Positions 3,814 through 59,535 of a DNA stretch of 64,000 nt are shown here, one piece after another. A program made the position numbers and the translations under genes. The notes under the pieces were generated by a model. That model had not been told where the DNA came from and did no database searches. It saw nothing but the letters and a program-made list of their open reading frames with translations. Source of the stretch: an uncultured bacterium (GTDB lineage Bacteria; Krumholzibacteriota; Krumholzibacteriia; JACNKJ01); contig CAYTPZ010000002.1 in assembly GCA_964440095.1 (NCBI GenBank), forward strand, positions 1,764 through 65,763, read 5' to 3'. Every line of letters starts with the position of its first letter. Position 1 is the stretch's first letter.

Positions 3814-3997
3814 TGTGTAGAGCCATCGCCTTGCTAGGATCGGTGTTAGTCGGGTCGCAGGCGACAATTATACCAGATGTTAAAAGCTCCGGTCAAAGCG
3901 GCCGCTCCTCTCGCATCTTATTGTGCCGCAAGCTTTCCGGTAATTCCGATCTCTTTCCCCGCTAGCTTGCCGGCCCACCTTCGACTATGTTTGGAAA

Positions 3998-5041
3998 ATG
4001 AAACTGAAAGGCATACAGCTAGGTCGCGTTCTGGGAATCCCCGTTCGCCTGCACTTCACCTTCCCATTCTTCCTCGTGGTGATCGTCGCGGTGGAAACCT
4101 ATGGGGGTGGTTGGCGGGCCGGTCTGCACATTGCGGGCGTGCTCATCTCGCTATTCATCTTCGTGCTGCTTCACGAACTGGGACACAGCGTGGTGGCGCG
4201 TCGGTACGGTATTCCCATCCTGGATATCACGCTCCTGCCTATTGGCGGTGTGGCCCGAACCCTGGGTCTGCCCAAAACATCGGGGCAGGAGATCGCCATC
4301 GCTCTGGCCGGACCGGCTGTGAATTATGTGCTGGCCATCCCCCTGGGTATTGCGGTGGCCACCTTGCCCGATGGCGACCTTCGCGAGTTCGCCATTCCCC
4401 TGCTTTTTGCCAACCTCATGCTTGGCACCTTCAACCTGATTCCCGCCTTTCCCATGGACGGGGGCCGCGTGCTCCGCGCTCTACTCGCCCTGCGCAAGGA
4501 GTATCTGGACGCCACGCGCATCGCGGTCTGGGTCGGCCGAGTTGTGGCAGTGATCTTCGTGGTGGTGGCCGTGGTGGATCGCGAGTGGATCCTTCTCGCC
4601 CTCATCGCGCTGTTCATCTACAACGCCGGCGGCGCCGAACTGCGCCTGGCTCGCAGGCTGCACTCACTGGCCAAGGGTACCGCTCAAAGTGCCGCCGCAC
4701 CTCTTCCGCCTGCCATTCCCGGCGATGCCAGCCTGAGCCGTGCATTTACCTGGCTGGAGAGTTTTCCCTACGTGCCCTACTTCGCCATCGAGATGGATCC
4801 CATCACCATTTCCCTGGTGGGTCGCGAAGAGCTGGGAGACCTTTGCCTCGCCCTGCGCGCCAACATGGAGATATCCCGAGTCACCCTGCATGCGGAAATT
4901 CCCCTGGCCGGGATGAGCTCCTTAGCCGATGCCCGCAGAAGGCTGCAAGAGGCCCATCGCAACATGCTTCCCGTACGCATGCCGAACGGCAGCCTCGGAA
5001 TTCTCACTCTATTGGATTTGGAAGCCTGGCTGGGCGACTAG
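3998..5041 (+). CDS. M50 family (site-2 protease-like) zinc metalloprotease, membrane
   Basis: HELGHS zinc motif inside a TM-rich N-terminal half, followed by a downstream LDG motif. Confidence 0.8.
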   Translation: MKLKGIQLGRVLGIPVRLHFTFPFFLVVIVAVETYGGGWRAGLHIAGVLISLFIFVLLHELGHSVVARRYGIPILDITLLPIGGVARTLGLPKTSGQEIAIALAGPAVNYVLAIPLGIAVATLPDGDLREFAIPLLFANLMLGTFNLIPAFPMDGGRVLRALLALRKEYLDATRIAVWVGRVVAVIFVVVAVVDREWILLALIALFIYNAGGAELRLARRLHSLAKGTAQSAAAPLPPAIPGDASLSRAFTWLESFPYVPYFAIEMDPITISLVGREELGDLCLALRANMEISRVTLHAEIPLAGMSSLADARRRLQEAHRNMLPVRMPNGSLGILTLLDLEAWLGD

Positions 5042-6006
5042 GAGTCGGGCAACTGAGGAATGGCCAGCTGCAGCACTGTGGCGGCCAGGCCCTTCGCGCC
5101 CGCATCCAGCATTTCGGGCATGACCGCGCCCAGGGTGTCCTGAGTGCTGTTGACGTAGGGGAATGCGTCGCCGGGACCTTCCCAAAGGAACATGGCCGGC
5201 AGGCCTTCCAACCAGAACCAGTACTGATCGCTGGCAGGGGCGTTGTATGGATTCGCCCAGTCCAGCGTGTCCAGGGCCACAGGTTCGGCGAGCTCGGCGG
5301 CCAGGGGCAGGGCGTCCGCTCCCATGGCTACGGTTTCGCCGTGGCAGATCAGGCGCAGGTCCTGCTCGCCGTCGCCGTCCCAGCCGATCATGTCCACGTT
5401 GACCATGCAGATCAAACTGTCGGGGCCGGTTTCATTGTCCCAGAATTCCACGTATCGCTTGCTGCCCTTGAAGCCCACTTCCTCGGCGGCGAAGAAGACC
5501 ACACGCACGGTGTAGGCGGTGGGCGTGTCATGAAGAATGCGAGTGAGTTCGAGGAGGGCGGCCACACCCGTGGCGTTGTCCACGGCACCGGGAGAGATAG
5601 TGCTGGAGTCGTTGGCGCTGGCATTGCCCGAAGAGCAGTCCCAATGAGCTCCCACCAACACCTGACGCTCCGGGGCAACCATTCCGGGAAAGTCCACGTA
5701 AACGTTGGCTGTGTGGATCAGGCGACGCCTCATTATTGTGAAAGAGTCCCACTGGGCCACGTTTCCCTGATCTTCGATCCAGCCCACGAGCATGTTCAAA
5801 GCCTGCGTACAACCTTCGTCGTATTCGATATAGCGCGAATGAATCGAGGCGAATTCCGTCACATAGCTCATGAGTTGGGCCTGGGAAATGCTGCCCACGC
5901 GCTCGGAAATGAGCTCGTCCTGGTCCTGATATCCAAGGGGGCAATCGGTGCCTGACTGGCATCCGGCCAGAATGAGGAGTAGCAGAAGAAATAATAAGGG
6001 TTTCAT
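5038..6006 (-). CDS. M28 family aminopeptidase, lipoprotein
   Basis: Lipobox LLLLILAGC; M28 blocks VGAHWDC, GAVDNATGVAALLELTR and FFAAEEVGFKGS. Confidence 0.8.
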   Translation of the reverse strand: MKPLLFLLLLLILAGCQSGTDCPLGYQDQDELISERVGSISQAQLMSYVTEFASIHSRYIEYDEGCTQALNMLVGWIEDQGNVAQWDSFTIMRRRLIHTANVYVDFPGMVAPERQVLVGAHWDCSSGNASANDSSTISPGAVDNATGVAALLELTRILHDTPTAYTVRVVFFAAEEVGFKGSKRYVEFWDNETGPDSLICMVNVDMIGWDGDGEQDLRLICHGETVAMGADALPLAAELAEPVALDTLDWANPYNAPASDQYWFWLEGLPAMFLWEGPGDAFPYVNSTQDTLGAVMPEMLDAGAKGLAATVLQLAIPQLPDS

Positions 6007-9738: not shown

Positions 9739-10188
9739 TTACTTCCGATAGAGCGATTTGACCATGGTCCAGGTTTCTTCGGCCGTGGGTACAGCGCAGT
9801 AGACGCTCGCGATTTGATCAGCGAGATAGAGCAGATCGCCGCCACCCTCCGCATACACTTCCAGCACGTAGGGATAATCTCCGGCCGTCATGGGCAGGCT
9901 GCCGTTGTCTGTTCCGTCCCATACTACAGAGTGGGAGCCCGTACTTTTGAAACCGCTGACGAGAGTGCGCACCAGGTTTTCGCCGTCTTCCGACAAAACG
10001 AACAACAGCACCAGTCCATCGCTATCGAGTTCATAGCTGATGGTCGTAGGGCTGTAGTCGGGTTCGCCCGGAATGTTGCAGAAGGGATTCGGATCATTGT
10101 CGCCCAGGTTCCAGGCAGCGCCGGCGGGCAGGGCGATGAGGGCTGCGAAGGCGAAGGCCATTAGGCTCAGGATGTGGGCGCGCTTCAT
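9739..10188 (-). CDS. Small secreted protein made of a T9SS-CTD/FlgD-Ig-like beta-sandwich domain
   Basis: Signal peptide MKRAHILSLMAFAFAALIALPAGA, then NDPNPFCNIPGE..TTISYEL...SHSVVWDGTDNGS...AGDYPYVLEV, which follows the CTD/FlgD_ig pattern. Confidence 0.55.
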   Translation of the reverse strand: MKRAHILSLMAFAFAALIALPAGAAWNLGDNDPNPFCNIPGEPDYSPTTISYELDSDGLVLLFVLSEDGENLVRTLVSGFKSTGSHSVVWDGTDNGSLPMTAGDYPYVLEVYAEGGGDLLYLADQIASVYCAVPTAEETWTMVKSLYRK

Positions 10189-10743
10189 GATGTCATCCTT
10201 GGGTGCAAGTGTAGGCCATAATTTTACCATTAACTAGGACAAGATGGAAGGGGCTGGCCGCTGGCCGCTAACCGCCAGAGCGGGAATGGCTCAGGCTGTG
10301 GCAGCTGGAACAGAGTGTGGTCAAATTGCTTAGTTGATTGCCTCCGTTCCTTTTGAGACTCCGACTTTGTAAAACGCACCACCACTCGTGCCTTGGTAAA
10401 TGGCAACTCGCCGACTGCTACAGCCTTCTTAACTTCTGGCAATTCGCGAAACGATTCGGCGAGTCGCTAAAACTGATAGAATTGCGCATCGGAAATCTTC
10501 AGGGCTTCGCGCGAGTATTGGCGCATGGAAGAATAGCCGAAAGCCCATGCGCAAGAGTTAAGGTTAAGTTACAACAACAATTAGCGAATATCGCAAAACT
10601 GTATCCCCGAATGTGTGAAACGCTGATTTCCTGTGCAATTGAAGCTCGGGTCAATCCGCCTTGGTGCGCGGTTTAGTCTCCGGAATCTACTACTGACTAT
10701 CCGTTAATTGTTCCCGGCCATAGTTCCCTGCTATGGTCCACGC

Positions 10744-12063
10744 ATGGAACTCTTTGAACGTCAAAGCGCCTCGCCTCTGGCCGACCGCATGCGCCCCGAA
10801 ACCCTGGACGGCTTCGTGGGGCAGGAGCAAATCCTCGGCCCGGGCAAACCCCTGCGGCGATTCATCGAAAGCGGCAAGCTGTCCAGCTCGCTCCTGTTCT
10901 GGGGGCCGCCGGGGACGGGAAAAACCACATTGGCTCGAATACTGGCGGGAGTTGTGGACGCGGAATTCGTCAGCTTCAGTGCCGTGACCAGCGGCGTGAA
11001 GGAAGTGCGAAGCATCGTGGCCGCCGCCCGCGAACGGCTGATCCTGAACGGACGCCGGACCATGCTCTTCGTGGATGAGATCCATCGATTCAACAAAGCT
11101 CAGCAGGACGCCTTTCTCCCCCACGTGGAAGACGGCACCGTAATTCTCGTGGGAGCCACCACCGAGAACCCCAGCTTCGAAGTGAACAGCGCGCTGCTCA
11201 GTCGCAGCCGAGTCTTCACCCTTCGGTCTCTCAATGAAAATGACATCCTTACTCTGCTGAAGCGCGCGCTGCTCGATCCGGACAAGGGCCTGGGCGATCT
11301 GGAACTGGAATTCGAAGAGGGAGCGCTGGAGGCCATTGCGGGAACTGCCAGCGGCGATGCGCGCACGGCCCTGAATTCGCTGGAGATGCTCGCCGAAAGC
11401 TTGGACGGTGAAAAGCATGTGAGCCTGAGCCAGGTGGCCGACTTCGCCGAGCGTCGTAGTCACATTTACGACAAGGCGGGCGAGGAGCATTACAATCTTA
11501 TCAGCGCCCTGCATAAATGCCTGCGCGACAGCGATCCCGACGCCAGTCTCTACTGGGCCACGCGCATGCTGGAATCGGGGGAAGATCCTCTCTATGTCAT
11601 GAGGCGTCTGGTCAGGTTCGCCAGCGAAGATATCGGCAACGCCGATCCCCGTGCTCTGCAGGTAGCGGTATCGTGTATGCAGGCAGTGCATTTTCTGGGC
11701 ATGCCCGAGGCCGACACGGCGGTGGCCCAGTGCGTCCTTTATCTTGCTACTGCGCCCAAGAGCAACTCGGTCTATTCGGCCATCAAGTCGGCCAAGGGCG
11801 ATGTGGAATCTCTACCCGACGCGCCTGTGCCCCTGCACCTTCGCAACGCGCCCACAAGCCTGATGAAGGAGCTTGGCTACGGCAAAGGCTACGAATACGC
11901 CCACGGAGATGCCGACGCGGTGGTGGATCAATCGCATTTTCCCGATGAAATCGGGGTGAGGCGTTACTATCACCCCACTAATCGAGGCTACGAATCGCGG
12001 GTGCGCGCCTTCCTGGAATGGCTGGAAGAGCAGAAGGTCGAGCGCCGGAAGGAGGGCAAATGA
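10744..12063 (+). CDS. rarA: Replication-associated recombination protein A (AAA+ ATPase)
   Basis: Walker A GPPGTGKTT, Walker B LFVDEIHRFNK, and the MgsA/RarA C-terminal helical domains. Confidence 0.9.
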   Translation: MELFERQSASPLADRMRPETLDGFVGQEQILGPGKPLRRFIESGKLSSSLLFWGPPGTGKTTLARILAGVVDAEFVSFSAVTSGVKEVRSIVAAARERLILNGRRTMLFVDEIHRFNKAQQDAFLPHVEDGTVILVGATTENPSFEVNSALLSRSRVFTLRSLNENDILTLLKRALLDPDKGLGDLELEFEEGALEAIAGTASGDARTALNSLEMLAESLDGEKHVSLSQVADFAERRSHIYDKAGEEHYNLISALHKCLRDSDPDASLYWATRMLESGEDPLYVMRRLVRFASEDIGNADPRALQVAVSCMQAVHFLGMPEADTAVAQCVLYLATAPKSNSVYSAIKSAKGDVESLPDAPVPLHLRNAPTSLMKELGYGKGYEYAHGDADAVVDQSHFPDEIGVRRYYHPTNRGYESRVRAFLEWLEEQKVERRKEGK

Positions 12064-12350
12064 GAATTCGTCCCCTGGTGGCCACGGCCATGGGCACCTG
12101 GGATGGCCGGCGTGGCTACCTCTGGCATCTGGCTGTTGAGCCCGAGCTGCAGAGCCGTGGGCTGGGGCGCAAGATGCTCGAGGCTCTGGGAGAGGCTTAC
12201 CGAAAGTTGGGGATCCCCAAGGTCACCTTTCAGATTGAAACCAGCAATCGCGAAGTGTTGGGCTTCTACCTGCGCATGGGCTATCACACAAGAGACGATC
12301 TCGTTTGTGTGAGCAAAGTTCTTCAACAGTCTGCCAAGGAGGAACGATGA
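12060..12350 (+). CDS. GNAT-family N-acetyltransferase, apparently truncated to the C-terminal half
   Basis: Motif A QSRGLGRKML preceded by the beta4-like LWHLAVEP; only about 97 aa; ATGA overlap with the rarA stop. Confidence 0.4.
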   Translation: MRIRPLVATAMGTWDGRRGYLWHLAVEPELQSRGLGRKMLEALGEAYRKLGIPKVTFQIETSNREVLGFYLRMGYHTRDDLVCVSKVLQQSAKEER

Positions 12351-13102
12351 GCCGCAAAGAGTGGTGGGAGAGTTTTTTCCGGGGCGCGTGGCTCGATGTG
12401 CAAAAGGGCCGCGACACGGCCGAAATCGTGGATCCAGCGGCGGGCTTTATCGAACTGGCCCTGGCCCTTGAGCCCGGCGCGCGAGTGCTGGATGTGCCCT
12501 GCGGCGAAGGGCGCCTTAGCCGCGCCATGGCCCGCAAGGGTTATCGGGCCAGCGGCCTGGACATCACGGGTAGCCTCCTTACCCAAGCCAGGAAGCAGGC
12601 CAGGGCCGAAAAGCTCGACATGGAGTTCAAGCAGGGCGATATGCGGAAGATCCCCTGGCGAAATCGTTTCCACGGCGCTTTCTGCTGGTGGGGGAGCTTC
12701 GGATACTTCGACGACGCGGGTAATTTGGCCTTTCTGAAATCGGTTCATCGCTCGCTGAAGCCCGGCGGCCGCTTCCTCTTGGATGGCCACTGCGCCGAAA
12801 CCCTCTTCCCATCCTTCGATGAACGTCAGTGGATAGAAGAGGGGAGTACCACCGCGCTGCTCGAGAACCACTACGATGCCAGCACCGGTCGTGTGGAAAT
12901 GGACTGGACTCTCATCAAGAATGGCCGGCGAAGCCGTCGCCACAGTTCCATTCGCATTTATACTTTGAAGGAACTCAGTGAACTCGCCTGGGAGGCAGGC
13001 TTCTCGGAAGTTCATGCCTTCGGTGGTCTATCGGGAGAGGCCTTCGAATTGGGGGCGCCACGCCTTCTTCTGCTGGCTGAAAAGGCAGGAAGCGTTCGTT
13101 AA
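12347..13102 (+). CDS. Class I SAM-dependent methyltransferase
   Basis: Motif I VLDVPCGEGRLS, followed by acidic-loop and motif II-like blocks. Confidence 0.7.
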   Translation: MSRKEWWESFFRGAWLDVQKGRDTAEIVDPAAGFIELALALEPGARVLDVPCGEGRLSRAMARKGYRASGLDITGSLLTQARKQARAEKLDMEFKQGDMRKIPWRNRFHGAFCWWGSFGYFDDAGNLAFLKSVHRSLKPGGRFLLDGHCAETLFPSFDERQWIEEGSTTALLENHYDASTGRVEMDWTLIKNGRRSRRHSSIRIYTLKELSELAWEAGFSEVHAFGGLSGEAFELGAPRLLLLAEKAGSVR

Positions 13103-13219: not shown

Positions 13220-15868
13220 ATGTGCCCCTTCAGCATGATTCGGCTCCGAGATTTCATCATTCAGGGAAGCCTTTTGGCGGTCCTTCTCGCGCCTATCGCC
13301 GTGGCCGAGAACCGTGACTCCGAGCTTCTTTCCCCTGACAGCAGGATCGAGATGGAAAGTGAGATCACTCGCCTTCAGTCTCGCATCCAGCGTGCGCGCC
13401 TACATTGGCGTGCGGGGATGACCTCGATGATGCGCTTGGATGAAAGTGCCCGACTTGCCCGTCGCATGCCTGGTCCCCTGGCTCTGCCCGCTTCCGGTCG
13501 CAAAGCCCTCTTCCAGGAGCACGACTTCACCGGCATGAGTTTGCCCCCGCGTCTGGACTGGCGGGATCAGGGCGGCAACTTCGTAACTCCCCTGCGAGAT
13601 CAGGGTGATTGCAGCGCGGGCTGGGCTTACGCCAGCACGGCGGCGCTGGAAAGCGCCTTCCTGCTGGGCATGAATGCCGGCAGCTTGGAAGACTTCGACC
13701 TTTCCGAAAACCAACTCATTGAATGCATGGGCGAATACGGCTTTGCAGCATCCTGTGAAAGCGGATGGACCAGCGACGCCCTCTGGTTCGCCGAGAACGT
13801 GGGCATGCTGGAATCCTGTTGCCTGCCGTCCGGAGTTCAGGTGGAAGATGCCTGTGCCGGCGGCCTATGCGGCGAGGACGAAAGCCGCCGCTACCGCTTT
13901 GCCGAGTCGGGCGTGGTCTGTTATCAGGCCGATGTGGCGGCCGTTCGCCGTGCCCTTCTCATTTTCGGCCCCTTGATCAGCGCCATGAAAACCTATCCCA
14001 GCATGGACGCCTATAGCACCGGCATCTACAGCCCCTTGCCCGGCGAAGTCTCCGATGGAATCCAAAGCTTGCTCATTGTGGGATACGACGCCCTCGGCCG
14101 GGCTTGGCTGGTGAAGAACAGCTGGGGAGATGATTGGGGCGAGGATGGTTTCGCCTGGATTTCCTGGGATGCTCATACCGGCCTGGGCAACGATTGCCAC
14201 TGGGTGCGCTTCGATCCACTGGAACGCGGTCCCCACGCATCCTTTGCGGTGAGTACCAGGAATCCGCTCACTGGTGCGGCCTGCCGCTTCGAGGATCGGA
14301 GCGTGAGTTCCACCGGCGAAATCATATCCTGGGAATGGGATTTCAATGGTGACGGAAACACGGACGCCACCGGGCCGGGTCCCCATGAATTCAGCTTCGA
14401 AAACTCGGGGCGATTGAGTCCCCTGCTTCGCGTGATCGACTCCCAGGGCCGCGAAGATATTGAAAACCCTCTCGGCCTGTTAGAGGTTAGTTACGATGGT
14501 CCCCGCTGGGTGGTGGATGCGAAGCTGGGCAGTCCTTACGGCGAGGGTTCGCCTGAGCAGCCCTTCCTGCGAGTGCAAAGCGCGCTCAATGCCGCAGCGG
14601 CGGGAGACACGGTATTGATCATGCCCGGTCTTTATCAGGGCGTGCTCAATAGTGATCTACAATTGAAGGGCATTCCCATTGTCCTGCGTGGAGTGGGCGA
14701 GCCCGGCCAAGTGATCTTGGACGGGGGAGACGAGTCGCGCATTCTCACCATTCTACCTGGCGACGGCTCGGGGCCTACCCTCGAGAACCTGGTCTTCCGC
14801 AGCGGATTCCACACTGGAGGCGGCGGAGCGGTGTTGGCTGCCGGCGCCACAGCCCGCTTCGCCGATTGTCTATTCAAAGGCAATCGCGCCCAGGGTGTGA
14901 ATTCGGGCGGAGGTGCGGTCTGGACCGATCGCGCCTTGCTCTTCGAACGCTGCAAATTCATGAACAATCTGGCTGCCGGTCCCGGCGGTGCGCTGCGCGC
15001 CCAGGGCGTGCTCGGACTTTCAGCCTGCCGATTCGAAGGCAACGCCAGTGCCGACGGCGGTGGTGCTTTAGCGCTGGGACCCGGCGCAATTCTGGACGCG
15101 GTCAATTCGGTCTTCTTCGCCAACGAAGCCCCCCGTGGAGGAGCCATCTTGGGCCATGATTCCCGCGCCCGCCTTGTGCATCTGAGCGCCGCCTCAAACG
15201 GCGCCGAAGAATCTGGCGGATTCCTGCACTGGACCGGTGGTCGAGTGGAATTGGCCAACAGTATTCTTTGGGGCGATGAGGCGCCCATGGATGCCGAGAT
15301 TCACGCTCAAGAAGCCGAGGTGGATTTGGGGCGCTGTCTGATTTCCAGTGCAGACGGAAGTTCGGATCTCCTGGCTGGGGAACCAGCCTTCGTGAATCTG
15401 TCCGCCGGCGATCTCCACTTGATCGATTGCAGCGCCGGTTTGGCAGCCGGCGAAGATCTGGGTGTGCCGGTTGATGTAGATGGGCGCCCGCGCCCCAATC
15501 CCGTAGGGAGTGCGCCGGATCTTGGCGCTTATGAGGTCGAGGGTTTGGCCAGTGCGGTAGGTGAACCCACGCCCATGGCTTTTACCTTCGAGGGTATCTA
15601 TCCCAACCCCTTCAATCCTTCCACGACCATTCTCTTCCGCCTGGAGGAACCGGCCGAAGTTAAGGCCGGCGTCTATCATCCCAACGGTCAGTGGGTCTCC
15701 ACTCTCATGGCTGAAGAAATGGGCGCGGGCTCGCATCGCTTATCCTGGACGGCAAGGAGCGAGGTGGGCGAAGCCCTGGCCAGCGGGCTGTTCCTTGTGC
15801 GCATCGAGTGTCGCTACGCGGATGGCCGCGTGGAGAGCGATTACCGCAAGGCCATTCTGGTTAAATAG
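13220..15868 (+). CDS. Multidomain T9SS cargo: papain-like (C1) domain with a substituted catalytic dyad, PKD-like domain, right-handed beta-helix region, C-terminal T9SS sorting domain
   Basis: Signal peptide; DWRDQG..VTPLRDQGDCSAGWAYAST and LVKNSWGDDWGEDGF are C1A blocks; EWDFNGDGNTD resembles PKD; G-rich beta-helix repeats follow; C-terminus YPNPFNPSTTILFRL...KAILVK is a T9SS CTD. Confidence 0.75.
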   Translation: MCPFSMIRLRDFIIQGSLLAVLLAPIAVAENRDSELLSPDSRIEMESEITRLQSRIQRARLHWRAGMTSMMRLDESARLARRMPGPLALPASGRKALFQEHDFTGMSLPPRLDWRDQGGNFVTPLRDQGDCSAGWAYASTAALESAFLLGMNAGSLEDFDLSENQLIECMGEYGFAASCESGWTSDALWFAENVGMLESCCLPSGVQVEDACAGGLCGEDESRRYRFAESGVVCYQADVAAVRRALLIFGPLISAMKTYPSMDAYSTGIYSPLPGEVSDGIQSLLIVGYDALGRAWLVKNSWGDDWGEDGFAWISWDAHTGLGNDCHWVRFDPLERGPHASFAVSTRNPLTGAACRFEDRSVSSTGEIISWEWDFNGDGNTDATGPGPHEFSFENSGRLSPLLRVIDSQGREDIENPLGLLEVSYDGPRWVVDAKLGSPYGEGSPEQPFLRVQSALNAAAAGDTVLIMPGLYQGVLNSDLQLKGIPIVLRGVGEPGQVILDGGDESRILTILPGDGSGPTLENLVFRSGFHTGGGGAVLAAGATARFADCLFKGNRAQGVNSGGGAVWTDRALLFERCKFMNNLAAGPGGALRAQGVLGLSACRFEGNASADGGGALALGPGAILDAVNSVFFANEAPRGGAILGHDSRARLVHLSAASNGAEESGGFLHWTGGRVELANSILWGDEAPMDAEIHAQEAEVDLGRCLISSADGSSDLLAGEPAFVNLSAGDLHLIDCSAGLAAGEDLGVPVDVDGRPRPNPVGSAPDLGAYEVEGLASAVGEPTPMAFTFEGIYPNPFNPSTTILFRLEEPAEVKAGVYHPNGQWVSTLMAEEMGAGSHRLSWTARSEVGEALASGLFLVRIECRYADGRVESDYRKAILVK

Positions 15869-15939
15869 CCAAGGACTGAGAACTGAGAACCCTCTCCCGG
15901 ATCTGGGGGAGGATGTTTTGTACATGTCCAAGCTCCTGT

Positions 15940-16768: not shown

Positions 16769-18697
16769 ATGAACGGTCGTGTGTGGCGGATTCTCACTCT
16801 GGCCATGGTTCTTCCCATGCTTCTGTTATCCGGCTGCGGCGAGAAGGAAGCGGCGCAAGAAAAAGTGGCAGAAAAGGCCCCTGGCGTCATTAAGAGAGTC
16901 GAGCGAGAAACCCCCGGAGTTCCACCTGAATTGGGTGGAGCTGGATTCGACCATTGGCTGGCCGAGACGGGTGACACCTCTTGGCAAACCGCGAAGGCCG
17001 GTATCACCGGAAACCCCGACGCGGTCAAGGGCGGCAAGCTGCGCATGGCCATGCAGGAATTCCCCGCAACACTTCGAACCGAAGGTAAAGACGCCAATAG
17101 CGCCTTCATATCTTCGGTCGCAGGACTCATCTACGAATCGCTTCTTTCCCTCGACAGCAACAGTCTCGAAATGGTCCCGGTGCTCGCCACGCATTGGAAG
17201 ATTTCCGAAGACAAGATGACCTTCAGCTTCCGCATCAATCCGGAAGCCCGTTGGGCCGACGGTGCTCCGGTGACCGCCGACGATGTGGTGGCGACATGGA
17301 TGCTGCTGGTGGACGAGGGCATCCTCTATCCCTATACCAACCTGCTCTATGGAATGTACGAAGAGCCCGTGGCCGAGAGTCCCTACCTCTTTCATGTGAC
17401 TACCACGGAAGAAAACTGGCGCCACTTTCTCTACTTCGCCATCTCCATGAAGATCATGCCCGCACATGTGATCGGTGGACTCGACGGCGGCGAGTATCTC
17501 GAAGAGTTCCAGTTCGACATGGTCATGGGCTCGGGGCCCTATGAACTGTTGCTGGACAATGTGGACAACGGCCGCAGCGTTACCATTACACGACGCGATG
17601 ATTGGTGGGGCGCCGACCTTCCGGAGAACACCGGCCTCTACAATTTCGACGAGATCGAATGGACCGTCATCATGGATGAGCGCCTCTGGCTCGAGAAGTT
17701 CAAGAAAGGCGAGCTGGATATCTACGTGGTCGGCCGCGCCAGCTGGTGGGTCGACGAATTCAACTACGACGAGATCGAGCGAGGCGTCTGCCAGAAGCGC
17801 AAGATCTTCAATGAGGATGTTCAGGGAATCAGCGGCTTGGCCTTCAATATGCGTGAATGGCCCTTCGACGACATTCGCATCCGCAAGGCCTTCGCCCATC
17901 TTTACGATCGCGACAAGCTCATCGATAAGCTTTTTCACAACGAGTACCTGAAACTCTACTCCTACTTTCCCTCGAGTGTTTACGAAAATCCGGACACGGA
18001 GAAATACGAGTACGATCCTGAAAAAGCCAAGCAGCTTCTCGCCGAGGCGGGCTTCAAGGAACGCAACTCCGACGGTTGGTTGGTCAATGAGAATGGCCAG
18101 ATTCTCGAGCTGACCCTCACCTTCGACTCGCCCAGCTGGGAACGCATCCACACGGTTCTTCAGGAAGGCTTGCAGCATGCGGGCATCAAGCTGAACCTGA
18201 AGCAGCTGACCAGCACCACGCAGTTCCAGAACAACATGGATCACAACTTCAAGCTGGCTTTCCAGAGCTGGTCCGGGCTCTACTGGCCCAACCCCAATAG
18301 CTCCTTCCATTCGGACAATGCCGAAGTGACGCCCTCGACCAACATCACCGGCGTGGCCGACGCCTATATCGATTCGCTGGCCTACATCTACGACAATGAG
18401 TACGACCAGACCAAGCGTGAAGAATTGATCAGGCTCATTGATCGCCGCCTCACTGAAATCGTGCCCTACGCTCTGGCCTGGTACGGTCCCTTCAATCGCA
18501 TCGTCTACTGGAACAAGTTCGGCTACCCCGATGGTTTCCTCAGTCGCACGGGCGACTACCTTGCGGTGCAGTCTCTCTGGTACATCGATCCTGAGCGTGA
18601 AAAGGCCATGAACGAGGCTATCGCCGATCCGAGCAAGACGCTCCCCATCGGCGAAACCAACGACACCTATTGGCTGGAAAAACTCGGGAAGATGTAG
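16769..18697 (+). CDS. ABC transporter substrate-binding lipoprotein, family 5 (Opp/Dpp/Yej-type peptide binding)
   Basis: Lipobox LLLSGC; SBP_bac_5-like architecture and length; first gene of a five-gene ABC operon. Confidence 0.75.
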   Translation: MNGRVWRILTLAMVLPMLLLSGCGEKEAAQEKVAEKAPGVIKRVERETPGVPPELGGAGFDHWLAETGDTSWQTAKAGITGNPDAVKGGKLRMAMQEFPATLRTEGKDANSAFISSVAGLIYESLLSLDSNSLEMVPVLATHWKISEDKMTFSFRINPEARWADGAPVTADDVVATWMLLVDEGILYPYTNLLYGMYEEPVAESPYLFHVTTTEENWRHFLYFAISMKIMPAHVIGGLDGGEYLEEFQFDMVMGSGPYELLLDNVDNGRSVTITRRDDWWGADLPENTGLYNFDEIEWTVIMDERLWLEKFKKGELDIYVVGRASWWVDEFNYDEIERGVCQKRKIFNEDVQGISGLAFNMREWPFDDIRIRKAFAHLYDRDKLIDKLFHNEYLKLYSYFPSSVYENPDTEKYEYDPEKAKQLLAEAGFKERNSDGWLVNENGQILELTLTFDSPSWERIHTVLQEGLQHAGIKLNLKQLTSTTQFQNNMDHNFKLAFQSWSGLYWPNPNSSFHSDNAEVTPSTNITGVADAYIDSLAYIYDNEYDQTKREELIRLIDRRLTEIVPYALAWYGPFNRIVYWNKFGYPDGFLSRTGDYLAVQSLWYIDPEREKAMNEAIADPSKTLPIGETNDTYWLEKLGKM

Positions 18698-18707
18698 GTA
18701 AGAGGGA

Positions 18708-20207
18708 ATGACTAGTTACTTCATCCGCAGATTTCTGCTGATCATACCCACCTTCCTGGGCATCACCATTCTGGTCTTCACGATCATGCAGTTGGTGCCC
18801 GGCGGTCCGCTTGAACAGGAATTGCTGAAGCTCCAAGCGGGCATGATGATGTCGGGAGAGGCCGGCGGCGGCACCGCCGGCGGTGACCTGGCCAGCGGAG
18901 GCATTGAAATTCCGCCGGACGCGATGGACGAGATGCGTCGCTTCTACGGCTTCGATAAACCCATTCCCGTTAGATACCTCAGGTGGCTGGGCCTCTGGCC
19001 CCGGGAAATGGAAGGCGTGTCCCTACGCCCCGGGAAATGGAAGAAGCTCATCAAAGGTGTGGATGTCCGCGTCTTGGAAGAGCCCGAGGGCTCGCGAGAC
19101 CTCACCATCGAGTATGACTTCACCAAGCTCAACGAGAAGTGGCAGATTGCCGAGGTCCCCGAAATTACAGCCGACGGCGAGCAGGAAGTGGTCATCGCTT
19201 GGCTGAAGTTCAAGGGCTCTTGGGTTCGAAAAATGGAAGACTCCCTTTCTGTGCGCCCGGGCGAATGGATCGACTTGCCGGGCGATGTTCGCGGTCGAGC
19301 CGTAGAAGCTCCCGGTGAAGAAAGCGGCTACATCGTCGAGCTCGACACCGAGCCGCTAGAGAAGCGCTGGGAGGTGACCAGCTTCGAAGAGCCCGATGAA
19401 GAGGGCGGCGAACCCAAGGTCATCGTTTCCTGGACCAAGTTCAGCGGGCTGCTTACCGGCGACCTGGGCAAGAGCCACGTCTTCGCCATGCCCGTGGGCA
19501 AGGTCATTCGCAAGCGCTTCCCCGTTTCCATCTACTTCGGACTCATCGGCTTCATTCTCAGTTACCTGGTCTGTATCCCCCTGGGCGTTTTCAAAGCGAT
19601 CCGACACGGAAGCCGTTTTGACATGGCTTCCAGCGCTATCGTATTCCTGGGCTACTCCATACCGGGATGGGCCCTGGGCGCGGTGCTACTCGTGATGTTA
19701 GGCGGCGGCAGCTTCTGGGAGGTTTTTCCGCTAGGGGAATTCAGAAGCGCGGGTTGGGATGAATTCACCGTCTGGCATAAGATTACCGATCAGGTGCATC
19801 ACACAATTCTTCCGGTGATCGCCTACATGGTGGGCAGCTTCGCCTCGCTCACCGTGGTCATGAAAAACTCGCTTCTGGAAAACTTGGGCCAGGACTACGT
19901 CCGCACGGCCTTCGCCAAGGGTCTTCACGAGCGGAAGGTTGTCTTTGTGCACGCCTTCCGGAACAGTCTCATTCCCATCGCCACGGGCCTCGGCCATCTG
20001 CTGAGCCTGATTCTGGCGGGCAGCTACCTGATCGAGAAGGTCTTCAACATCCAGGGCTTCGGGTTGCTGGGCTATACGAGCATTTTGAAGCGGGACTATC
20101 CGGTGGTGCTTGGAATTCTCGTCATCGGATCGCTGCTCAGACTCTTCGGTAATATCTTCAGCGACATCCTCTATGCGGTCATCGATCCGCGCATCAGGTT
20201 CAAGTAG
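18708..20207 (+). CDS. Peptide ABC transporter permease (OppB/DppB/YejB-like) with enlarged periplasmic loop
   Basis: N-terminus MTSYFIRRFLLIIPTFLGITILVF and C-terminus ...DPRIRFK are typical OppB ends; about 190-aa insert after TM1. Confidence 0.8.
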   Translation: MTSYFIRRFLLIIPTFLGITILVFTIMQLVPGGPLEQELLKLQAGMMMSGEAGGGTAGGDLASGGIEIPPDAMDEMRRFYGFDKPIPVRYLRWLGLWPREMEGVSLRPGKWKKLIKGVDVRVLEEPEGSRDLTIEYDFTKLNEKWQIAEVPEITADGEQEVVIAWLKFKGSWVRKMEDSLSVRPGEWIDLPGDVRGRAVEAPGEESGYIVELDTEPLEKRWEVTSFEEPDEEGGEPKVIVSWTKFSGLLTGDLGKSHVFAMPVGKVIRKRFPVSIYFGLIGFILSYLVCIPLGVFKAIRHGSRFDMASSAIVFLGYSIPGWALGAVLLVMLGGGSFWEVFPLGEFRSAGWDEFTVWHKITDQVHHTILPVIAYMVGSFASLTVVMKNSLLENLGQDYVRTAFAKGLHERKVVFVHAFRNSLIPIATGLGHLLSLILAGSYLIEKVFNIQGFGLLGYTSILKRDYPVVLGILVIGSLLRLFGNIFSDILYAVIDPRIRFK

Positions 20208-20216
20208 GAGGGCGCG

Positions 20217-21287
20217 ATGACCAAGAACAAAAACAAAAACAACCAGAAGCAAACCGTCAGCGTCAGCATTTTCCGAAAGCGCCTGCGAAAGTTCCGCACC
20301 TTCAAACGCGGATACTATTCCTTCATTGTCTTGCTGACCGCCTACGTGATTTCATTTTTCCTGCCGCTCATGGTGGGCAACAAGCCCCTGCTGGTGACCT
20401 ACGAGGGCAAGGCCTACTTCCCGCTGGTGAATTTCTACCAGAGTAATGAGTTCGGCATGGAGGGGTCGGAAGAGCCCAATTATCGAATGCTGAAAGAGCA
20501 TTTCAAGGCGGCGGACAAGGGCACGGTGATCATGCCGCCCTATCCCTATCATCCCAATGAGTCGCTGCTCGATATGCCGGGGGAGCCGCCTCATGCGCCG
20601 AGCTCGAGTCACTGGTGCGGAACCGATAACCGTGGGCGCGACGTCTTCGCGCGACTGGTCTACGGTTTCCGCATTTCCATCAGCTTCGCCCTGATCACGA
20701 CCTTCTTCGCCTATACGGTGGGCATCACCATCGGAGCCATGCTCGGCTACTTCGGCGGGCGCTTCGACATCATCATGCAGAGGTTCATCGAAATCTGGAG
20801 TTCGATGCCCTTCCTTTACACGGTGATCATCGTCAGCTCCATCCTGCAGCCGAACTTCCTTCTGCTTTCGGTGGTGCTCATGTTCTTCGGCTGGATGGGC
20901 ATGACCTACTATGTGCGCGGCGAATTCTATCGCGAGAAGGCCAAGGACTATGTGGCCGGCGCCATCACCATGGGCGCGGGGCATCGCGAGATCATCTTTC
21001 GTCACATTCTTCCCAACGCCCTCACGCCGGTGATCTCTTTCGCGCCCTTCGCGGTGGTGGGAAACATCTTCGCGCTTGTGGGTCTCGACTTCCTGGGCTT
21101 CGGACTTCCGCCGCCAACCTCGAGCTGGGGGCAGCTGGTCCAGCAGGGCATGGATTCCGTGACTACGGCCTGGTGGCTGGTGCTAACGCCATTGTCCGCG
21201 CTCTTTCTCACGCTTTTGATGGTGGTCTTCATCGGGGAGGCCATTCGCGAGGCGTTCGATCCCAAGGTCTTCTCGAGGTTGCGATAG
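20217..21287 (+). CDS. Peptide ABC transporter permease (OppC/DppC-like)
   Basis: HWCGTD...GRDVFARLVYG, a conserved OppC block; TM topology. Confidence 0.8.
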   Translation: MTKNKNKNNQKQTVSVSIFRKRLRKFRTFKRGYYSFIVLLTAYVISFFLPLMVGNKPLLVTYEGKAYFPLVNFYQSNEFGMEGSEEPNYRMLKEHFKAADKGTVIMPPYPYHPNESLLDMPGEPPHAPSSSHWCGTDNRGRDVFARLVYGFRISISFALITTFFAYTVGITIGAMLGYFGGRFDIIMQRFIEIWSSMPFLYTVIIVSSILQPNFLLLSVVLMFFGWMGMTYYVRGEFYREKAKDYVAGAITMGAGHREIIFRHILPNALTPVISFAPFAVVGNIFALVGLDFLGFGLPPPTSSWGQLVQQGMDSVTTAWWLVLTPLSALFLTLLMVVFIGEAIREAFDPKVFSRLR

Positions 21288-21288
21288 C

Positions 21289-22275
21289 ATGAGCGAAAGA
21301 AAGAAACTCTTCGAGATCCGCGGCCTCGTGACCCAGTTCACCACGGAGGCCGGCGTGGCCCGCGCCGTGGAGAACGTGGACTTCGACATTTTCGAGGGCG
21401 AGGTCCTCGGCATCGTCGGAGAATCGGGTAGCGGAAAAAGTGTAACAGCCCTCAGCCTCACGCGGCTCATTCCCAATCCTCCCGGTGAGATCACCCACGG
21501 TTCTGTAATGTACCAGGGGCGCGATCTTCTGAAGCTCAGGTATGATGAGCTTCACAAGATTCGCGGCAAAGAAGTGGCCATGATCTTCCAGGAACCCATG
21601 ACCAGCCTGAACCCGGTCTTCACGGTGGGCTACCAGATTCGGGAGATTATCGAGCTGCATGAAAATCTGAGCAAGGCCGAGGTGACCAAGCGCGCCATCG
21701 CCATGCTGGATCTGGTGGGTATTCCCGACGCGGAAAAACGCCTCGACGATTATCCTCATCAGTTTTCTGGCGGCATGCGCCAGCGCGCCATGATAGCCAT
21801 GGCCATGGCCTGCAATCCGGCCCTGCTCATCGCCGACGAACCGACCACGGCGTTGGACGTGACCATCCAGGCGCAGATCATCGAGCTGATGCTCACGGTG
21901 AAGGAGAAGCGGCCCGAGGCGGCCGTGATGCTCATCACTCACGATCTGGCCGTGGTGGCCGAAACCTGCGAGCGCGTCATCGTCATGTACGGCGGGCGCA
22001 TTCAGGAGATGGCCGAGGTGACCGAACTGTTCGAGCAGCCCTTGCATCCTTACACGCAGGGTCTACTGAGAAGCTTGCCGCGTCCGGGGCAGAAGGTGAA
22101 ACGGCTGGATACCATTCGCGGAATGGTACCGAGCCTTTTCGATATGCCCGCCGGTTGTAAATACTGCACACGCTGTGATCTTGCTGAAGATCGCTGCTTC
22201 ACCGAGGAGCCCGATCTGGTGGAGATTCATCCCGGTCATCAGGTTCGCTGTCACCTGGTAAAGAAGGAGGTGTAG
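21289..22275 (+). CDS. Peptide ABC transporter ATP-binding protein (OppD/DppD-like)
   Basis: Walker [12 protein letters not shown] signature LSGGMRQR, C-terminal oligopeptide-ABC Cys-rich tail. Confidence 0.85.
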
Positions 22276-22278
22276 GTC

Positions 22279-23298
22279 ATGGATATGAAAAATCCCGTTC
22301 TTGAAGTGAAAGACCTGCGCGTCTACTACCCCATCTTCGGCGGTGTCATGCTGCGCAAGGTGGCCGAGGTGAAGGCGGTGGATGGCATCGATTTCCATCT
22401 GGAACAAGGTGAAACCCTTGGACTGGTGGGGGAGTCGGGTTGCGGTAAGAGCACCGTGGGCCGTGCCATCCTCAATGTGCTTTGGACCACGGCGCCCGAC
22501 GTGGAGATCAGCGGCGATGTGAACTTCTATCGCGATGGTGAGCCCACGAACCTAGTGGGTCTGAATCGCAAGAAGATGAAACCCTTCCGCCGCGATCTGC
22601 AGATGATCTTCCAGGATCCCTATTCTTCGCTGAACCCGCGCATGACCGTGGGGCAGATCGTCAGCGAGCCCCTGCAGCTGCATCGCAAGGACATGGGTAA
22701 AAAGGAGCGCATAGAGCGCGTGGCTTGGTTGCTGGAAAAGGTAGGCCTGAGCGCCGAGCAGAGCAATCGCTATCCCCACGAGTTCAGCGGCGGTCAGCGT
22801 CAGCGCATCGGTTTCGCGCGGGCACTCGCCACGAATCCGAAGGTGATCATTGCCGATGAACCTGTAAGCGCACTGGATGTTTCGATCCAGGCCCAGGTGA
22901 TCAATCTGCTCGGAGAACTGCAGGAGGAGTTCGGTCTCACCTACATGTTCATCGCCCACGACCTCAGCGTCGTCGAGCACATCAGCGATCGTATCGCGGT
23001 GATGTACCTGGGCAATATTGTGGAGATCGGCAGCGCGAAGGACGTCTACTTCAATCCCATGCACCCCTACAGCAAGGCCCTGCTTTCGGCCGTGCCGCAA
23101 CCCGATCCCAAACGCAAGGACAAGGGCCAGCGCATCGTGCTTACCGGCGATGTTCCCACGCCCATCGCCAAGCCTTCGGGATGCGCCTTCCGCACTCGTT
23201 GCCCCATCGCCAAGGCGGAATGCGCAGGGGAAGTGCCAAAGCTTGTAGAAGTGGAATCGGGGCACTACGCGGCCTGTCCATACCACGAGGAGATGTAG
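22279..23298 (+). CDS. Peptide ABC transporter ATP-binding protein (OppF/DppF-like)
   Basis: Walker A GESGCGKST, ABC signature FSGGQRQR, C-terminal Cys-rich tail. Confidence 0.85.
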   Translation: MDMKNPVLEVKDLRVYYPIFGGVMLRKVAEVKAVDGIDFHLEQGETLGLVGESGCGKSTVGRAILNVLWTTAPDVEISGDVNFYRDGEPTNLVGLNRKKMKPFRRDLQMIFQDPYSSLNPRMTVGQIVSEPLQLHRKDMGKKERIERVAWLLEKVGLSAEQSNRYPHEFSGGQRQRIGFARALATNPKVIIADEPVSALDVSIQAQVINLLGELQEEFGLTYMFIAHDLSVVEHISDRIAVMYLGNIVEIGSAKDVYFNPMHPYSKALLSAVPQPDPKRKDKGQRIVLTGDVPTPIAKPSGCAFRTRCPIAKAECAGEVPKLVEVESGHYAACPYHEEM

Positions 23299-25299: not shown

Positions 25300-26058
25300 A
25301 TGCGAGCGCCCACAAGGAAAGCCCTGATCCTAGTTGTTCTGGCCGGGGTTTTCACCTCGGCTGCGAGCGCCTTGCCCCTGGATCCCACTTGGACCTTCGC
25401 TCCCGTGGATAGCAGCGATTGGCGCGGCGACACCCTTTCGGTGGCCATGCGCGCCGATCAAGCATCGAGCGGCAGCATGTATCTGGAAAACAGCGGTAGC
25501 ACGGCGGCGGGACCTTTCACCCTTCAGTTCGCAAGGGATCTTCGCTCCGAAAGCGGTGGATCCATACCCACGAGCGCTTTGAGCTTCGACCCGGCGGTGG
25601 TGCCCGAACTCGCTGCCGGCGGCACGGCCAGCGTGGGGGTGGGCATTCATCTTTCACCTCAGACGCCACCCGAAATCTATCGCGGCACGATCCAAGCCCT
25701 ACTTCCCGACATGAGCGTGCACAGCGAGTGTGTTTTGGAGCTGCGCGTGCGCAACGATGAAAACCTGCGGGTGGCGCCCAATCCCGTGTACGTCGACAGG
25801 CACAGTCAGGTGGATTTCCGCATCGCCGCCCGTTCGGGCATGAACGTGGACATCGACCTATTCACCATGGGTATGGACAAGGTTCGAACCCTTCACGGTG
25901 ACGGGCCCTGGAGCAACAACGGTGTCGAAACTTTGAGCTGGGACTTGACCAACGAAGGTGGCCACCCCGTGGCCTCGGGAATGTACATCGCGCTTGCCCG
26001 CTTCGAAGTGGGCGGAGATCGATTCACCGAAACCCATCGCGTCATGGTCATCTACTAG
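25300..26058 (+). CDS. Secreted hypothetical protein with a divergent T9SS-CTD-like C-terminal beta-sandwich
   Basis: Signal peptide; C-terminus APNPVYVD..VDFRI...VASGMYIALARF...HRVMVIY loosely fits the CTD pattern. Confidence 0.5.
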   Translation: MRAPTRKALILVVLAGVFTSAASALPLDPTWTFAPVDSSDWRGDTLSVAMRADQASSGSMYLENSGSTAAGPFTLQFARDLRSESGGSIPTSALSFDPAVVPELAAGGTASVGVGIHLSPQTPPEIYRGTIQALLPDMSVHSECVLELRVRNDENLRVAPNPVYVDRHSQVDFRIAARSGMNVDIDLFTMGMDKVRTLHGDGPWSNNGVETLSWDLTNEGGHPVASGMYIALARFEVGGDRFTETHRVMVIY

Positions 26059-26065
26059 GAGCGAG

Positions 26066-42661: not shown

Positions 42662-42904
42662 TTCGGCGGCGTGGAGTGCCTGGTCCGTGCGATCCAGTTC
42701 CCAGAGGCGGTGGGTGATCTCCGACCAGATCTGAGCGCGCAGGGGCGCGCCGCCCTGCCGGGCGAGGCTGGGAAGTGCTTCCAGAAGCAGGGCGAGTCCC
42801 TGCTCCGGTTCGCCAATGCCGGACAGGGCGCGAGAGGATTTCAGGTCCAGGACGGCATTTTGCAGGGGCGACAGGTTCTGGGCTTCTTCACGCGCCCGCA
42901 GGTA

Positions 42905-43339
42905 TTAGGCCGGAGCGCCCGGTCGGCGGAAAAAGCGTCGCGCGTAAAGAAAACGTCCCACGGGCCCGGTGCTGTCGGCCAGCGCGGGAAGTGAGTAGAG
43001 ACTGTCGCGTTGGGCGGTTCTCTGGAGCAGGTGGTTGTTGCCCGAAGCAAGGTCGATCCAGAGAAAGTTTTCGGGATCCACGCGCCAGAGCGCATAGAGA
43101 CTGTCCCCCGCCTCCCGGCGTGTCTCGGGACGCTCGATGGCCGCGGCCAGCCTGTGGTAGCGAAGAAAGGCCGGCGCCAGCGGCGCGTGCGCGTCTTCAC
43201 CCCGGGCCATGGCTTCGTAGGACTCGCGGGCGAGCTTGGCGATCCGCCCTTCCAGGGGAGTCTTATCCAGCGGAGGGAGGTCGTCCTCGGGAGTTTTCGC
43301 CCGTCCGCAGCCGAGAGCATCGCCAGGCTGAACAGGCAT
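42905..43339 (-). CDS. Hypothetical protein, possibly an N-terminal fragment of the same TPR-like gene
   Basis: Same frame as 41465-42661 but separated by stop codons; plausible composition; divergent from the ECF sigma gene. Confidence 0.3.
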   Translation of the reverse strand: MPVQPGDALGCGRAKTPEDDLPPLDKTPLEGRIAKLARESYEAMARGEDAHAPLAPAFLRYHRLAAAIERPETRREAGDSLYALWRVDPENFLWIDLASGNNHLLQRTAQRDSLYSLPALADSTGPVGRFLYARRFFRRPGAPA

Positions 43340-44100: not shown

Positions 44101-44105
44101 AGGGC

Positions 44106-57967: not shown

Positions 57968-57988
57968 CCTGATCGGCGGAGTTTTTTT

Positions 57989-58344: not shown

Positions 58345-59535
<1,191 letters not shown>

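Follow-up and report, generated by a model that had tools for sequence, protein, structure and literature searches.

Within a 64,000-nt stretch of DNA from an uncultured bacterium (referred to below as the window), one open reading frame encodes a multi-domain protein whose papain-like (C1A) domain lacks both residues of the catalytic dyad, and the comparisons described here strongly support its being a genuine pseudo-protease (a non-peptidase homologue) that has lost its catalytic residues but remains under purifying selection as a domain. We consider it probable that this is an exported surface protein that originated from an active protease, and that its C1A head acts as a binding or capture module. 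The earlier note on this DNA had proposed a pseudo-protease with both dyad residues replaced in a secreted multi-domain protein, a proposal that agrees with the recurrence of the substitutions in seven sequences, with purifying selection and with an intact predicted fold. The window protein was not on record in an exact-sequence look-up.

The features of the gene are collected in Table 1. The true start may lie at 13235 (Met6) and not at 13220, as an ortholog of 90% identity begins at the Met equivalent to Met6. The signal peptide was read from the sequence, with a basic n-region (RLRD), a hydrophobic core and AVA ahead of Glu30. The hairpin downstream of the gene is only suggestive, since hairpin-type sites in the region are no more numerous than in shuffled sequences and the promoter and terminator scan overall performed no better than shuffles.

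Table 1. Coordinates of the gene, its predicted domains and the key active-site codons (positions in the window)
Feature	Position	Strand	Basis or remark
Whole ORF, pre-pro C1A pseudo-protease + PKD + beta-helix + CTD (C-terminal domain)	13220..15868	+	882 aa; coordinates include the stop codon
Predicted Sec signal peptide, residues 1-29	13220..13306	+	Read from sequence; low-pLDDT N-terminal helix
Propeptide-like region, residues 30-105	13307..13534	+	Models, procathepsin PDB matches, conservation, dN/dS
C1A papain-fold domain without catalytic dyad, residues 106-335	13535..14224	+	
Gln128 codon CAG, retained oxyanion-hole Gln19	13601..13603	+	Alignments
Gly134 codon GGC, catalytic Cys25 position	13619..13621	+	Alignments, phmmer
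Gln282 codon CAA, catalytic His159 position	14063..14065	+	Alignments, phmmer
Asn300 codon AAC, retained Asn175 in KNSWG block	14117..14119	+	Alignments
PKD-like Ig domain, residues 336-420	14225..14479	+	PKD_4 (below cutoff in query), family matches, ColH PKD
Right-handed parallel beta-helix, residues 421-790	14480..15589	+	PMP-type repeats; choice-of-anchor-Q-like end
C-terminal Ig-like sorting domain, residues 791-882	15590..15865	+	T9SS type-A-like / FlgD_ig-like; YPNPFNP motif
Terminator-like hairpin, 9-bp stem and T-rich tail	15891..15912	+	Starts 23 nt past the stop codon; only suggestive

The Peptidase_C1 profile (PF00112) matches residues 108-319 of the protein (E 1.3e-33; 117 bits against a cutoff of 20.7 bits), and this significant match together with a papain-like two-lobe fold places the domain in the papain family. 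When aligned by phmmer with cathepsins in the PDB, the query segment qgdcsagw pairs with qgacgscw, with Gly in place of the catalytic Cys25, and dgiqsllivgy pairs with kfthavlivgy, with Gln in place of the catalytic His159; in the pairwise alignment with cathepsin H, His159 falls opposite a gap adjoining Gln282, in a segment that contains no His. MAFFT alignment with papain gives the correspondences Q19=Gln128, C22=Cys131, C25=Gly134, W26=Trp135, H159=Gln282, N175=Asn300 and W177=Trp302, and the map is identical in sets of 52 homologs, of 150 representatives from an exhaustive search and of 24 family members. Both replacements had been put forward in the earlier note, as had the retention of the oxyanion Gln, of the Asn and Trp of the NSWG block and of ENQLIEC. 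All of this stands: Gly134 occupies the nucleophile position in every alignment, including those with PF00112-family homologs, Gln282 (or, in the one pairwise case, the gap next to it) occupies that of the base, no alignment places a Cys or a His at either, and both ENQLIEC and KNSWG can be recognised. As the nucleophile Cys25 and the general base His159 of an active peptidase are Gly and Gln here, the capacity for thiol proteolysis would have been lost.

The auxiliary residues Gln128 (Gln19), Asn300 (Asn175) and Trp302 (Trp177) are nevertheless invariant in the family. The rarity of the combination is apparent among the best library representatives, where 145 of 164 C1 domains carry Q/C/H/N at the four positions and only three carry Q/G/Q/N, all three belonging to the family of the query. 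We also considered an alternative nucleophile or base and rejected it, since none of the 11 positions fixed differently from the active members has gained a Cys, Ser or His, and neither of the two histidines close by, His319 and His327, is conserved.

Approximately 24 proteins have a common architecture, consisting of a signal peptide, a pro-region, the C1A domain, a PKD domain, a beta-helix of PMP-type repeats and an Ig-like C-terminal domain. They were recovered by exhaustive search of representatives and with the full-length query; a word-index search with the N-terminal 350 aa missed the family and returned only matches of 35% identity or less, all of them Cys/His. The question of whether orthologs keep Cys and His has a mixed answer within this family. 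Seven sequences (65-100% identity) are Gly/Gln, eight further ones in the 24-member alignment are Gly/His and one is Ser/His, while P0209, P0212, L002, P0058 and P0062 have both Cys25 and His159. These active members are identical to the query in architecture, including the FlgD_ig-type CTD, but differ in keeping the CGSCW or CGACW motif and GxHA, and share only 34-43% identity with it. Positions 23 and 24 are variable in the family alignment.

In a neighbour-joining tree of the full-length alignment (200 bootstrap replicates) the Cys-less clade has 100% bootstrap support and the Gln159 subclade 96.5%. However, in a tree built from the C-terminal region only, the active P0209/P0212 pair falls inside a Gly/His subgroup (71%), and because of this nesting a single loss of the Cys is not secure. 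The window, L051 and L053 have the gene order RarA, GNAT, MTase, [gene], PCMT(-), Opp in common with the contig that carries the active P0209, which puts dead members and this active one in a single chromosomal slot, and the genes of this slot form a stepwise series from Cys/His through Gly/His to Gly/Gln.

Selection on the dead domain was estimated against the 90% ortholog (dS 0.67), and dN/dS is 0.053 for C1, 0.092 for the beta-helix, 0.13 for the propeptide-like region and 0.043 for the CTD, the lowest of the protein, with 0.078 for the protein as a whole; the comparison with an ortholog of 65% identity is saturated (dS 1.6-2.8) and is used qualitatively only. Within the Gly/Gln clade the fraction of invariant sites is likewise higher in C1 (0.55) than in the PKD domain (0.49) or the beta-helix (0.47). 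The codons themselves have turned over synonymously across lineages, with GGC, GGA, GGA, GGG and GGC for Gly25 and CAA, CAG and CAG for Gln159, and maintenance extends to the cysteines of the disulfides and to the scaffold of the cleft (Gln19, Gly66, Trp67, Asn175 and Trp177). The ratio of divergence in C1 to that in the rest of the protein is 0.93 for dead-dead pairs and 0.80 for active-active pairs, of which there are only nine, not independent of one another, and the constraint on C1 relative to the rest is thus somewhat weaker in dead-dead pairs. On these comparisons the dead C1A domain is neither degenerating nor an error, and selection maintains its fold and, specifically, the Gly and the Gln.

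An intact papain-like fold is also seen in the predicted structure. The propeptide-like region consists of a long helix and an extended segment, carries a W-x-A-G-x-T...L....R motif that is conserved in active and dead members alike (Arg78 is invariant), and is modelled as an N-terminal propeptide lying against the mature domain, as in C1A zymogens; procathepsin matches in the PDB cover approximately 300-315 of the 316 residues. A dead enzyme is unable to remove its own propeptide and its cleft may consequently stay occluded, so that in this zymogen-like model the conserved propeptide could block the cleft unless it is cut off in trans.

The order that the earlier note had given for the domains following C1A (PKD-like, beta-helix, CTD) is confirmed by profile, PDB and family matches. 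PKD_4 matches residues 338-413 of the query below its cutoff (21.8 bits against 27; 2e-4), while the profile hits 19 of the 22 family members (E <= 0.01), and PKD domains of ColH in the PDB match the query at E 3.5e-4. For the beta-helix, which is predicted with pLDDT > 90, the Chlam_PMP repeat profile (PF02415) scores 29.4 bits, above its 20.6 cutoff, and five GGA[ILV] and four FxxN motifs recur at a spacing of approximately 25 residues, as in repeats of the PMP type; POMP_repeat is found in 12 of 22 family members.

The protein is a putative T9SS cargo, as the earlier note had proposed. At the family level the CTD matches the PorU C-terminal domain in 21 of 22 members, TIGR04183 in 11 and PF18962 in three, whereas the query's own CTD lies below the cutoffs for TIGR04183 (13.9 bits against 23; E 0.04) and FlgD_ig (25.6 against 27; 1.2e-5) and does not match PF18962, although it matches the PorU C-terminus at 1.1e-5. 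None of the T9SS machinery (SprA/Sov, PorV, PorU, PorK-N) was found among the ORFs scanned within the 64-kb window. Two other window ORFs end in CTDs that are 37% identical to that of the query. A true flagellar FlgD was considered and rejected, as the match is confined to the Ig-like part at the very C-terminus, and several unrelated secreted proteins encoded in the window also terminate in this domain. A literature search combining Krumholzibacteriota with T9SS gave nothing specific; the NCBI taxonomy places the Krumholzibacteriota phylum directly under Bacteria. We regard the query as most likely a surface protein, exported by Sec and sorted by its CTD, that carries a C1A head without catalytic function.

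To account for these observations we propose that the protein is exported by Sec and sorted by its CTD, and would reside at the surface of, or associated with the outer membrane of, a Krumholzibacteriota-related bacterium. Its head would have the fold of a cathepsin-L-like C1A zymogen incapable of thiol proteolysis. The ancestor would have been an active protease with the identical domain arrangement, encoded at this chromosomal position; loss of the Cys presumably came first and led to Gly/His forms that persisted for long, the His being lost later, and an active paralog persists elsewhere in a related genome. Following removal of the propeptide in trans, the dead head, carried on a stalk of PKD domain and PMP-repeat beta-helix, would most likely bind or capture peptides or proteins non-catalytically. 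A lectin-like role, as had been suggested, does not fit, the C1A fold not being a lectin. The invariance of His159 across the nine Gly/Ser25 proteins that keep it counts against this explanation. The long retention of this His after loss of the Cys, together with the maintenance of Gly25 and Gln159 through synonymous codon turnover, hints that the cleft has been re-purposed for a new ligand-binding or capture function and not merely switched off, a tentative and rather doubtful suggestion. One possible form of it is a cleft that would retain peptides or proteins from the cell's surroundings on its surface, beside the conserved neighbouring oligopeptide (Opp) ABC transporter. If true, the slot would offer a three-step series in which to study the passage from a bacterial surface protease to a binding protein.

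Several other explanations need to be weighed against a binding or capture role. The C1A head, with its propeptide perhaps permanently bound, might serve folding, stability or spacing while the beta-helix is the functional part as an adhesin or carbohydrate-active domain, the cleft having no external ligand. We think this unlikely, as dN/dS in C1 is below, and its fraction of invariant sites above, that of the beta-helix, and as Gly25 and Gln159 have been held specifically through synonymous turnover, which goes beyond what one would expect a purely structural role to demand of an exposed cleft. Less probable again is that the protein regulates an active paralog or acts as its decoy, either by sequestering substrates or protease inhibitors or by inhibition of an active Cys/His paralog on the same surface by the propeptide. 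The active L002 (Candidatus Krumholzibacteriota, JAFGBK010000038) and a Cys-less slot copy (P0207, Gly/His) do occur together in one MAG (assembly JAFGBK01), alike in architecture and CTD; however, this coexistence comes from one Gly/His genome only and not from that of the window, and the two genes are not co-localised, L002 being non-syntenic with the slot copies and located elsewhere in the genome.

It is very improbable that the protein is still an enzyme, working by a non-thiol mechanism, with the help of a residue that is not part of the canonical dyad, or on a different reaction in a remodelled cleft. Selection on Gly25, Gln159, Gln19 and Asn175 and the persistence of His159 after the Cys was lost would favour such an activity, but nucleophile and base are both missing from the query, clade-specific positions have gained no candidate residue, and positions 23 and 24 vary. 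As for an error of sequencing or assembly, or a gene inactivated not long ago and turning into a pseudogene, each substitution in the query is indeed a single base away from a catalytic codon (GGC against TGC; CAA against CAC/T). Even so, the 882-aa ORF is intact with a dN/dS of 0.05, and Gly and Gln recur in seven independent metagenomic sequences, some with GGA or GGG and CAG codons, and we regard this explanation as effectively refuted by the dN/dS, the seven-sequence conservation and the codon turnover.

Annotation pipelines give such proteins the labels 'C1 family peptidase', 'hypothetical protein' or 'outer membrane repeat protein', and surveys of proteases in uncultured bacteria from sediment and the subsurface would therefore overestimate proteolytic capacity. 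The family also provides an unusually clean natural series of active, half-dead and fully dead forms with the same architecture and slot, suited to work on pseudoenzyme evolution. C1A pseudo-proteases are already known, and the query family adds a member to them. In soybean P34 the residue replacing the catalytic cysteine is Gly, and in Plasmodium SERA5 the nucleophile is Ser and the His is kept; MEROPS classes SERA5 and other eukaryotic C1A pseudo-proteases as 'non-peptidase homologues'. SERA5 thus differs from the query in having Ser and not Gly at the nucleophile and in being a protein of a eukaryotic parasite. P34 (Gly m Bd 30K) is a member of the papain superfamily in which the catalytic cysteine is absent and which is reported to be devoid of enzymatic function, although both its pre- and its pro-region are cleaved off (PMC2292165). 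P34 is thus a C1A non-peptidase homologue without the catalytic cysteine, as the query is, although it is eukaryotic, vacuolar and single-domain, with no PKD domain, beta-helix or CTD. Unlike the query, procathepsins L, K and B and xylellain (3ois), a bacterial enzyme of the C1A family, possess both Cys25 and His159 and become active after removal of the propeptide. A literature search for pseudoproteases together with type IX secretion found no paper. A curated T9SS cargo with a dead protease domain does exist, however, in NCBIfam NF052323 ('T9SS-dependent M6-like inactivated metalloprotease'), whose C-terminal region matches the CTD of the query at E 0.004 and matches 15 of 22 family members; its protease domain has the M6 metalloprotease fold and not that of C1A, and the likeness to the query is in the CTD only. 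The present family would add a cysteine-protease example to this small set of dead-protease cargoes with T9SS-type C-terminal domains.

The query protein, encoded by a single ORF (Table) with exactly the bounds proposed for it in the earlier note, carries a folded, selected C1A domain of zymogen type that lacks nucleophile, base and any substitute residue. Pairwise HMMER alignment with solved cathepsins places the query's QGDCSAGW on cathepsin QGACGSCW and its DGIQSLLIVGY on KFTHAVLIVGY, and the residue correspondence is identical in every MAFFT alignment that included papain. In the latter, catalytic Cys25 (papain numbering) becomes Gly134 and His159 becomes Gln282; Gln19 (as Gln128), Cys22, Trp26, Asn175 and Trp177 are all retained. 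The codons for Gly134 (GGC) and Gln282 (CAA) are each one base away from Cys and His respectively. Among 164 C1 domains in the best 150 representatives from a 1.84-billion-protein library, 145 have Q/C/H/N and only three have Q/G/Q/N, all of them from the query's own family. The alignments to cathepsins and papain, the C1-domain survey and the codons together therefore bear out in full the earlier claim that both dyad residues are substituted, and the accompanying reading of the protein as a pseudo-protease is supported.

Pfam places Peptidase_C1 (PF00112) on query residues 108-319 (E = 1.3e-33) and a Chlam_PMP repeat over its cutoff, with PKD_4, Beta_helix and FlgD_ig slightly under theirs. 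The final ~90 residues match two NCBIfam models, the PorU C-terminal domain and the C-terminal domain (CTD) of the 'T9SS-dependent M6-like inactivated metalloprotease', and match TIGR04183 weakly (E 0.04); a choice-of-anchor-Q motif is also matched. MIRLRD at the N-terminus, the hydrophobic core behind it and AVA|E have the look of a Sec signal peptide, and the true start may be 13235 (877 aa), because the 90% identical ortholog at locus L001 begins at the Met corresponding to query Met6. Residues 30-345, modelled with AlphaFold2 from an alignment of 90 sequences, give a mean pLDDT of 91.1 and a pTM of 0.91, and in the model residues 30-105 are predicted to be a propeptide-like segment, whose core motif (W-x-A-G-x-T...L....R78) is conserved in active and Cys25-less members alike.

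Genome scan, exhaustive profile search and full-length homolog search recover a family of about 24 proteins (837-1046 aa) of one common architecture, with C1 and FlgD_ig in 22/22, PKD_4 in 19/22 and Chlam_PMP in 17/22. A word-index search with the N-terminal 350 aa of the query missed all of the close members (65-89% identity), which were found with the full-length query and exhaustive search, so that a single word-index negative is untrustworthy. As to whether orthologs retain the catalytic pair, the answer is divided: Cys/His is kept in seven members and replaced in the rest, by Gly/Gln in the query and six others (65-90% identity), Gly/His in eight, Ser/His in one and Ser/Gln in one. The last (P0075, 859 aa) is further decayed, being also without Cys22, Trp26 and Cys63, and may represent a later stage of decay or another use of the C1 domain. 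His159 is invariant in the nine Gly25 or Ser25 proteins that retain it (P0207, P0055, P0054, P0056, P0208, P0210, P0211, P0213 and P0214), so that in these the general base persists without its nucleophile. Gly25 is encoded by GGC, GGA, GGA, GGG and GGC across five lineages and Gln159 by CAA, CAG and CAG; as synonymous codons differ, the residues are held while the codons drift, and the substituted dyad is a conserved state and not an accident.

Nei-Gojobori dN/dS between the query and its 90% ortholog (dS 0.67) is 0.053 for the C1 domain, 0.130 for the pro-region, 0.058 for PKD, 0.092 for the beta-helix, 0.043 for the CTD and 0.078 for the whole protein. Within the Gly/Gln clade the fraction of invariant sites is higher in C1 (0.55) than in PKD (0.49) or the beta-helix (0.47). 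However, the ratio of C1 divergence to that of the rest of the protein is 0.93 in pairs lacking Cys25 versus 0.80 in active pairs (nine, non-independent), and some relaxation of constraint after catalytic loss is therefore likely.

In a full-length neighbour-joining tree (200 bootstraps) all 17 Cys-less proteins form one clade (100%) with the active P0209 and P0212 as its sister pair, and this clade contains a Gln159 subclade (96.5%); in a C-terminal-only tree the active pair instead falls within a Gly/His subgroup (71%). Given the difference between the two trees, Cys loss may have been single or repeated, or recombination may have been involved. Gene order (RarA/MgsA, GNAT, SAM-methyltransferase, the query gene, PCMT on the opposite strand, SBP_bac_5 and an Opp ABC transporter) is common to the window, locus L051 (Gly/Gln, 65% identity), locus L053 (Gly/His, Candidatus Krumholzibacteriota MAG GCA_016933175.1) and the contig of P0209 (Cys/His), and its upstream half is also present at locus L052. 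Active, half-inactivated (Gly/His) and fully inactivated forms thus share one chromosomal slot, and this stepwise series of loss among same-slot genes is the family's most attractive feature. Identity to the Krumholzibacteriota MAG and L051 is 70-81% for the housekeeping neighbours and only 43-65% for the query, which assigns the window to that phylum or its vicinity and shows the query to be fast-evolving, as surface proteins usually are. What lies between the C1 gene and PCMT differs from locus to locus, and in the window there is nothing. The position of the oligopeptide-type operon, downstream past the divergent PCMT, is kept in L001, L051, L053 and the P0209 contig, and a functional link between transporter and C1 protein is possible.

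The chromosomal region around the query is ordinary (~59% GC), and a core chromosomal context is confirmed by a tRNA/EF-Tu/NusG cluster of the classic tuf/secE-nusG arrangement. Three further window ORFs end in a FlgD_ig-type CTD, two of these CTDs being 37% identical to that of the query, which fits what seems to be a common sorting tag of the organism's secreted proteins. An intact transposase lies in otherwise housekeeping surroundings, and a multihaem cytochrome suggests a capacity for extracellular or periplasmic electron transfer.

Table. Coordinates of features in the window and at related loci
Feature	Sequence	Position	Strand	Description
Query ORF	window	13220..15868	+	882 aa
Hairpin and T-rich tail	window	15891-15912		3' of query stop codon; hairpin scan overall not above chance
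Oligopeptide-type ABC operon	window	16769..23298	+	SBP_bac_5, two permeases, two ATPases
ORF with FlgD_ig-type CTD	window	10..1725	+	
ORF with FlgD_ig-type CTD	window	1972..3867	-	
ORF with FlgD_ig-type CTD	window	9739..10230	-	
ORF	window	3877..5955	+	692 aa; no Pfam match at E <= 1e-4
ORF	window	25958..27475	+	505 aa; no Pfam match at E <= 1e-4
ORF	window	42841..44124	-	427 aa; no Pfam match at E <= 1e-4
Multihaem cytochrome	window	34216..35616	+	Cytochrome_cB; weaker cytochrome c7 and MtrC/MtrF-like matches
ISL3-family transposase	window	40150..41388	-	DDE_Tnp_ISL3, 1.4e-70
tRNA/EF-Tu/NusG cluster	window	57895..59845		tRNA Thr, Tyr, Gly, Thr, EF-Tu (58306..59535), tRNA-Trp, NusG
Beta-helix paralog	L051	10656..11849	-	397 aa, between C1 gene and PCMT; 34% identical to query beta-helix
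FlgD_ig-CTD protein	L052	10563..13229	-	885-888 aa (with next row), between C1 gene and PCMT
FlgD_ig-CTD protein	P0209 contig	10134..12791	-	between C1 gene and PCMT

We propose that the query protein would be exported by Sec and sorted to the cell surface by its T9SS type-A-like CTD, where a C1A head without catalytic activity would be displayed on a stalk of PKD and beta-helix, and that this head most likely uses its retained cleft to bind peptides or proteins. For such binding the propeptide would have to be removed in trans; soybean P34, though inactive, has its propeptide removed (PMC2292165). The putative T9SS routing is plausible, as is the putative binding or 'lectin-like' role that the earlier note had suggested. 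The head could instead be purely structural and locked by its propeptide, which we regard as unlikely. Assembly JAFGBK01 contains both the Gly/His protein P0207 and, in a different genomic context, the Cys/His family member at L002, so that in this one genome a slot copy lacking Cys25 coexists with an active paralog; a role for the query as decoy or regulator of an active paralog is nevertheless less probable still. Residual or novel catalysis is very improbable, since we find no residue in the query's C1A domain to substitute for the lost nucleophile or base, and an artefact we consider negligible.

Our literature search turned up no paper that treats a C1A pseudo-protease carrying a T9SS-type CTD or one from Krumholzibacteriota, and family members are named 'hypothetical protein', 'predicted outer membrane repeat protein' or 'C1A family cysteine protease' in databases; we therefore count the query protein as new and unannotated, although inactive papain-like proteins as such are already known and well documented (PMC10318531), and MEROPS has a category of 'non-peptidase homologue'. 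Soybean P34, another C1A protein, also lacks the catalytic cysteine and is inactive (PMC2292165); SERA5 is a structural neighbour, and the inactivated metalloprotease curated by NCBIfam, whose CTD matches that of the query, is a T9SS cargo.
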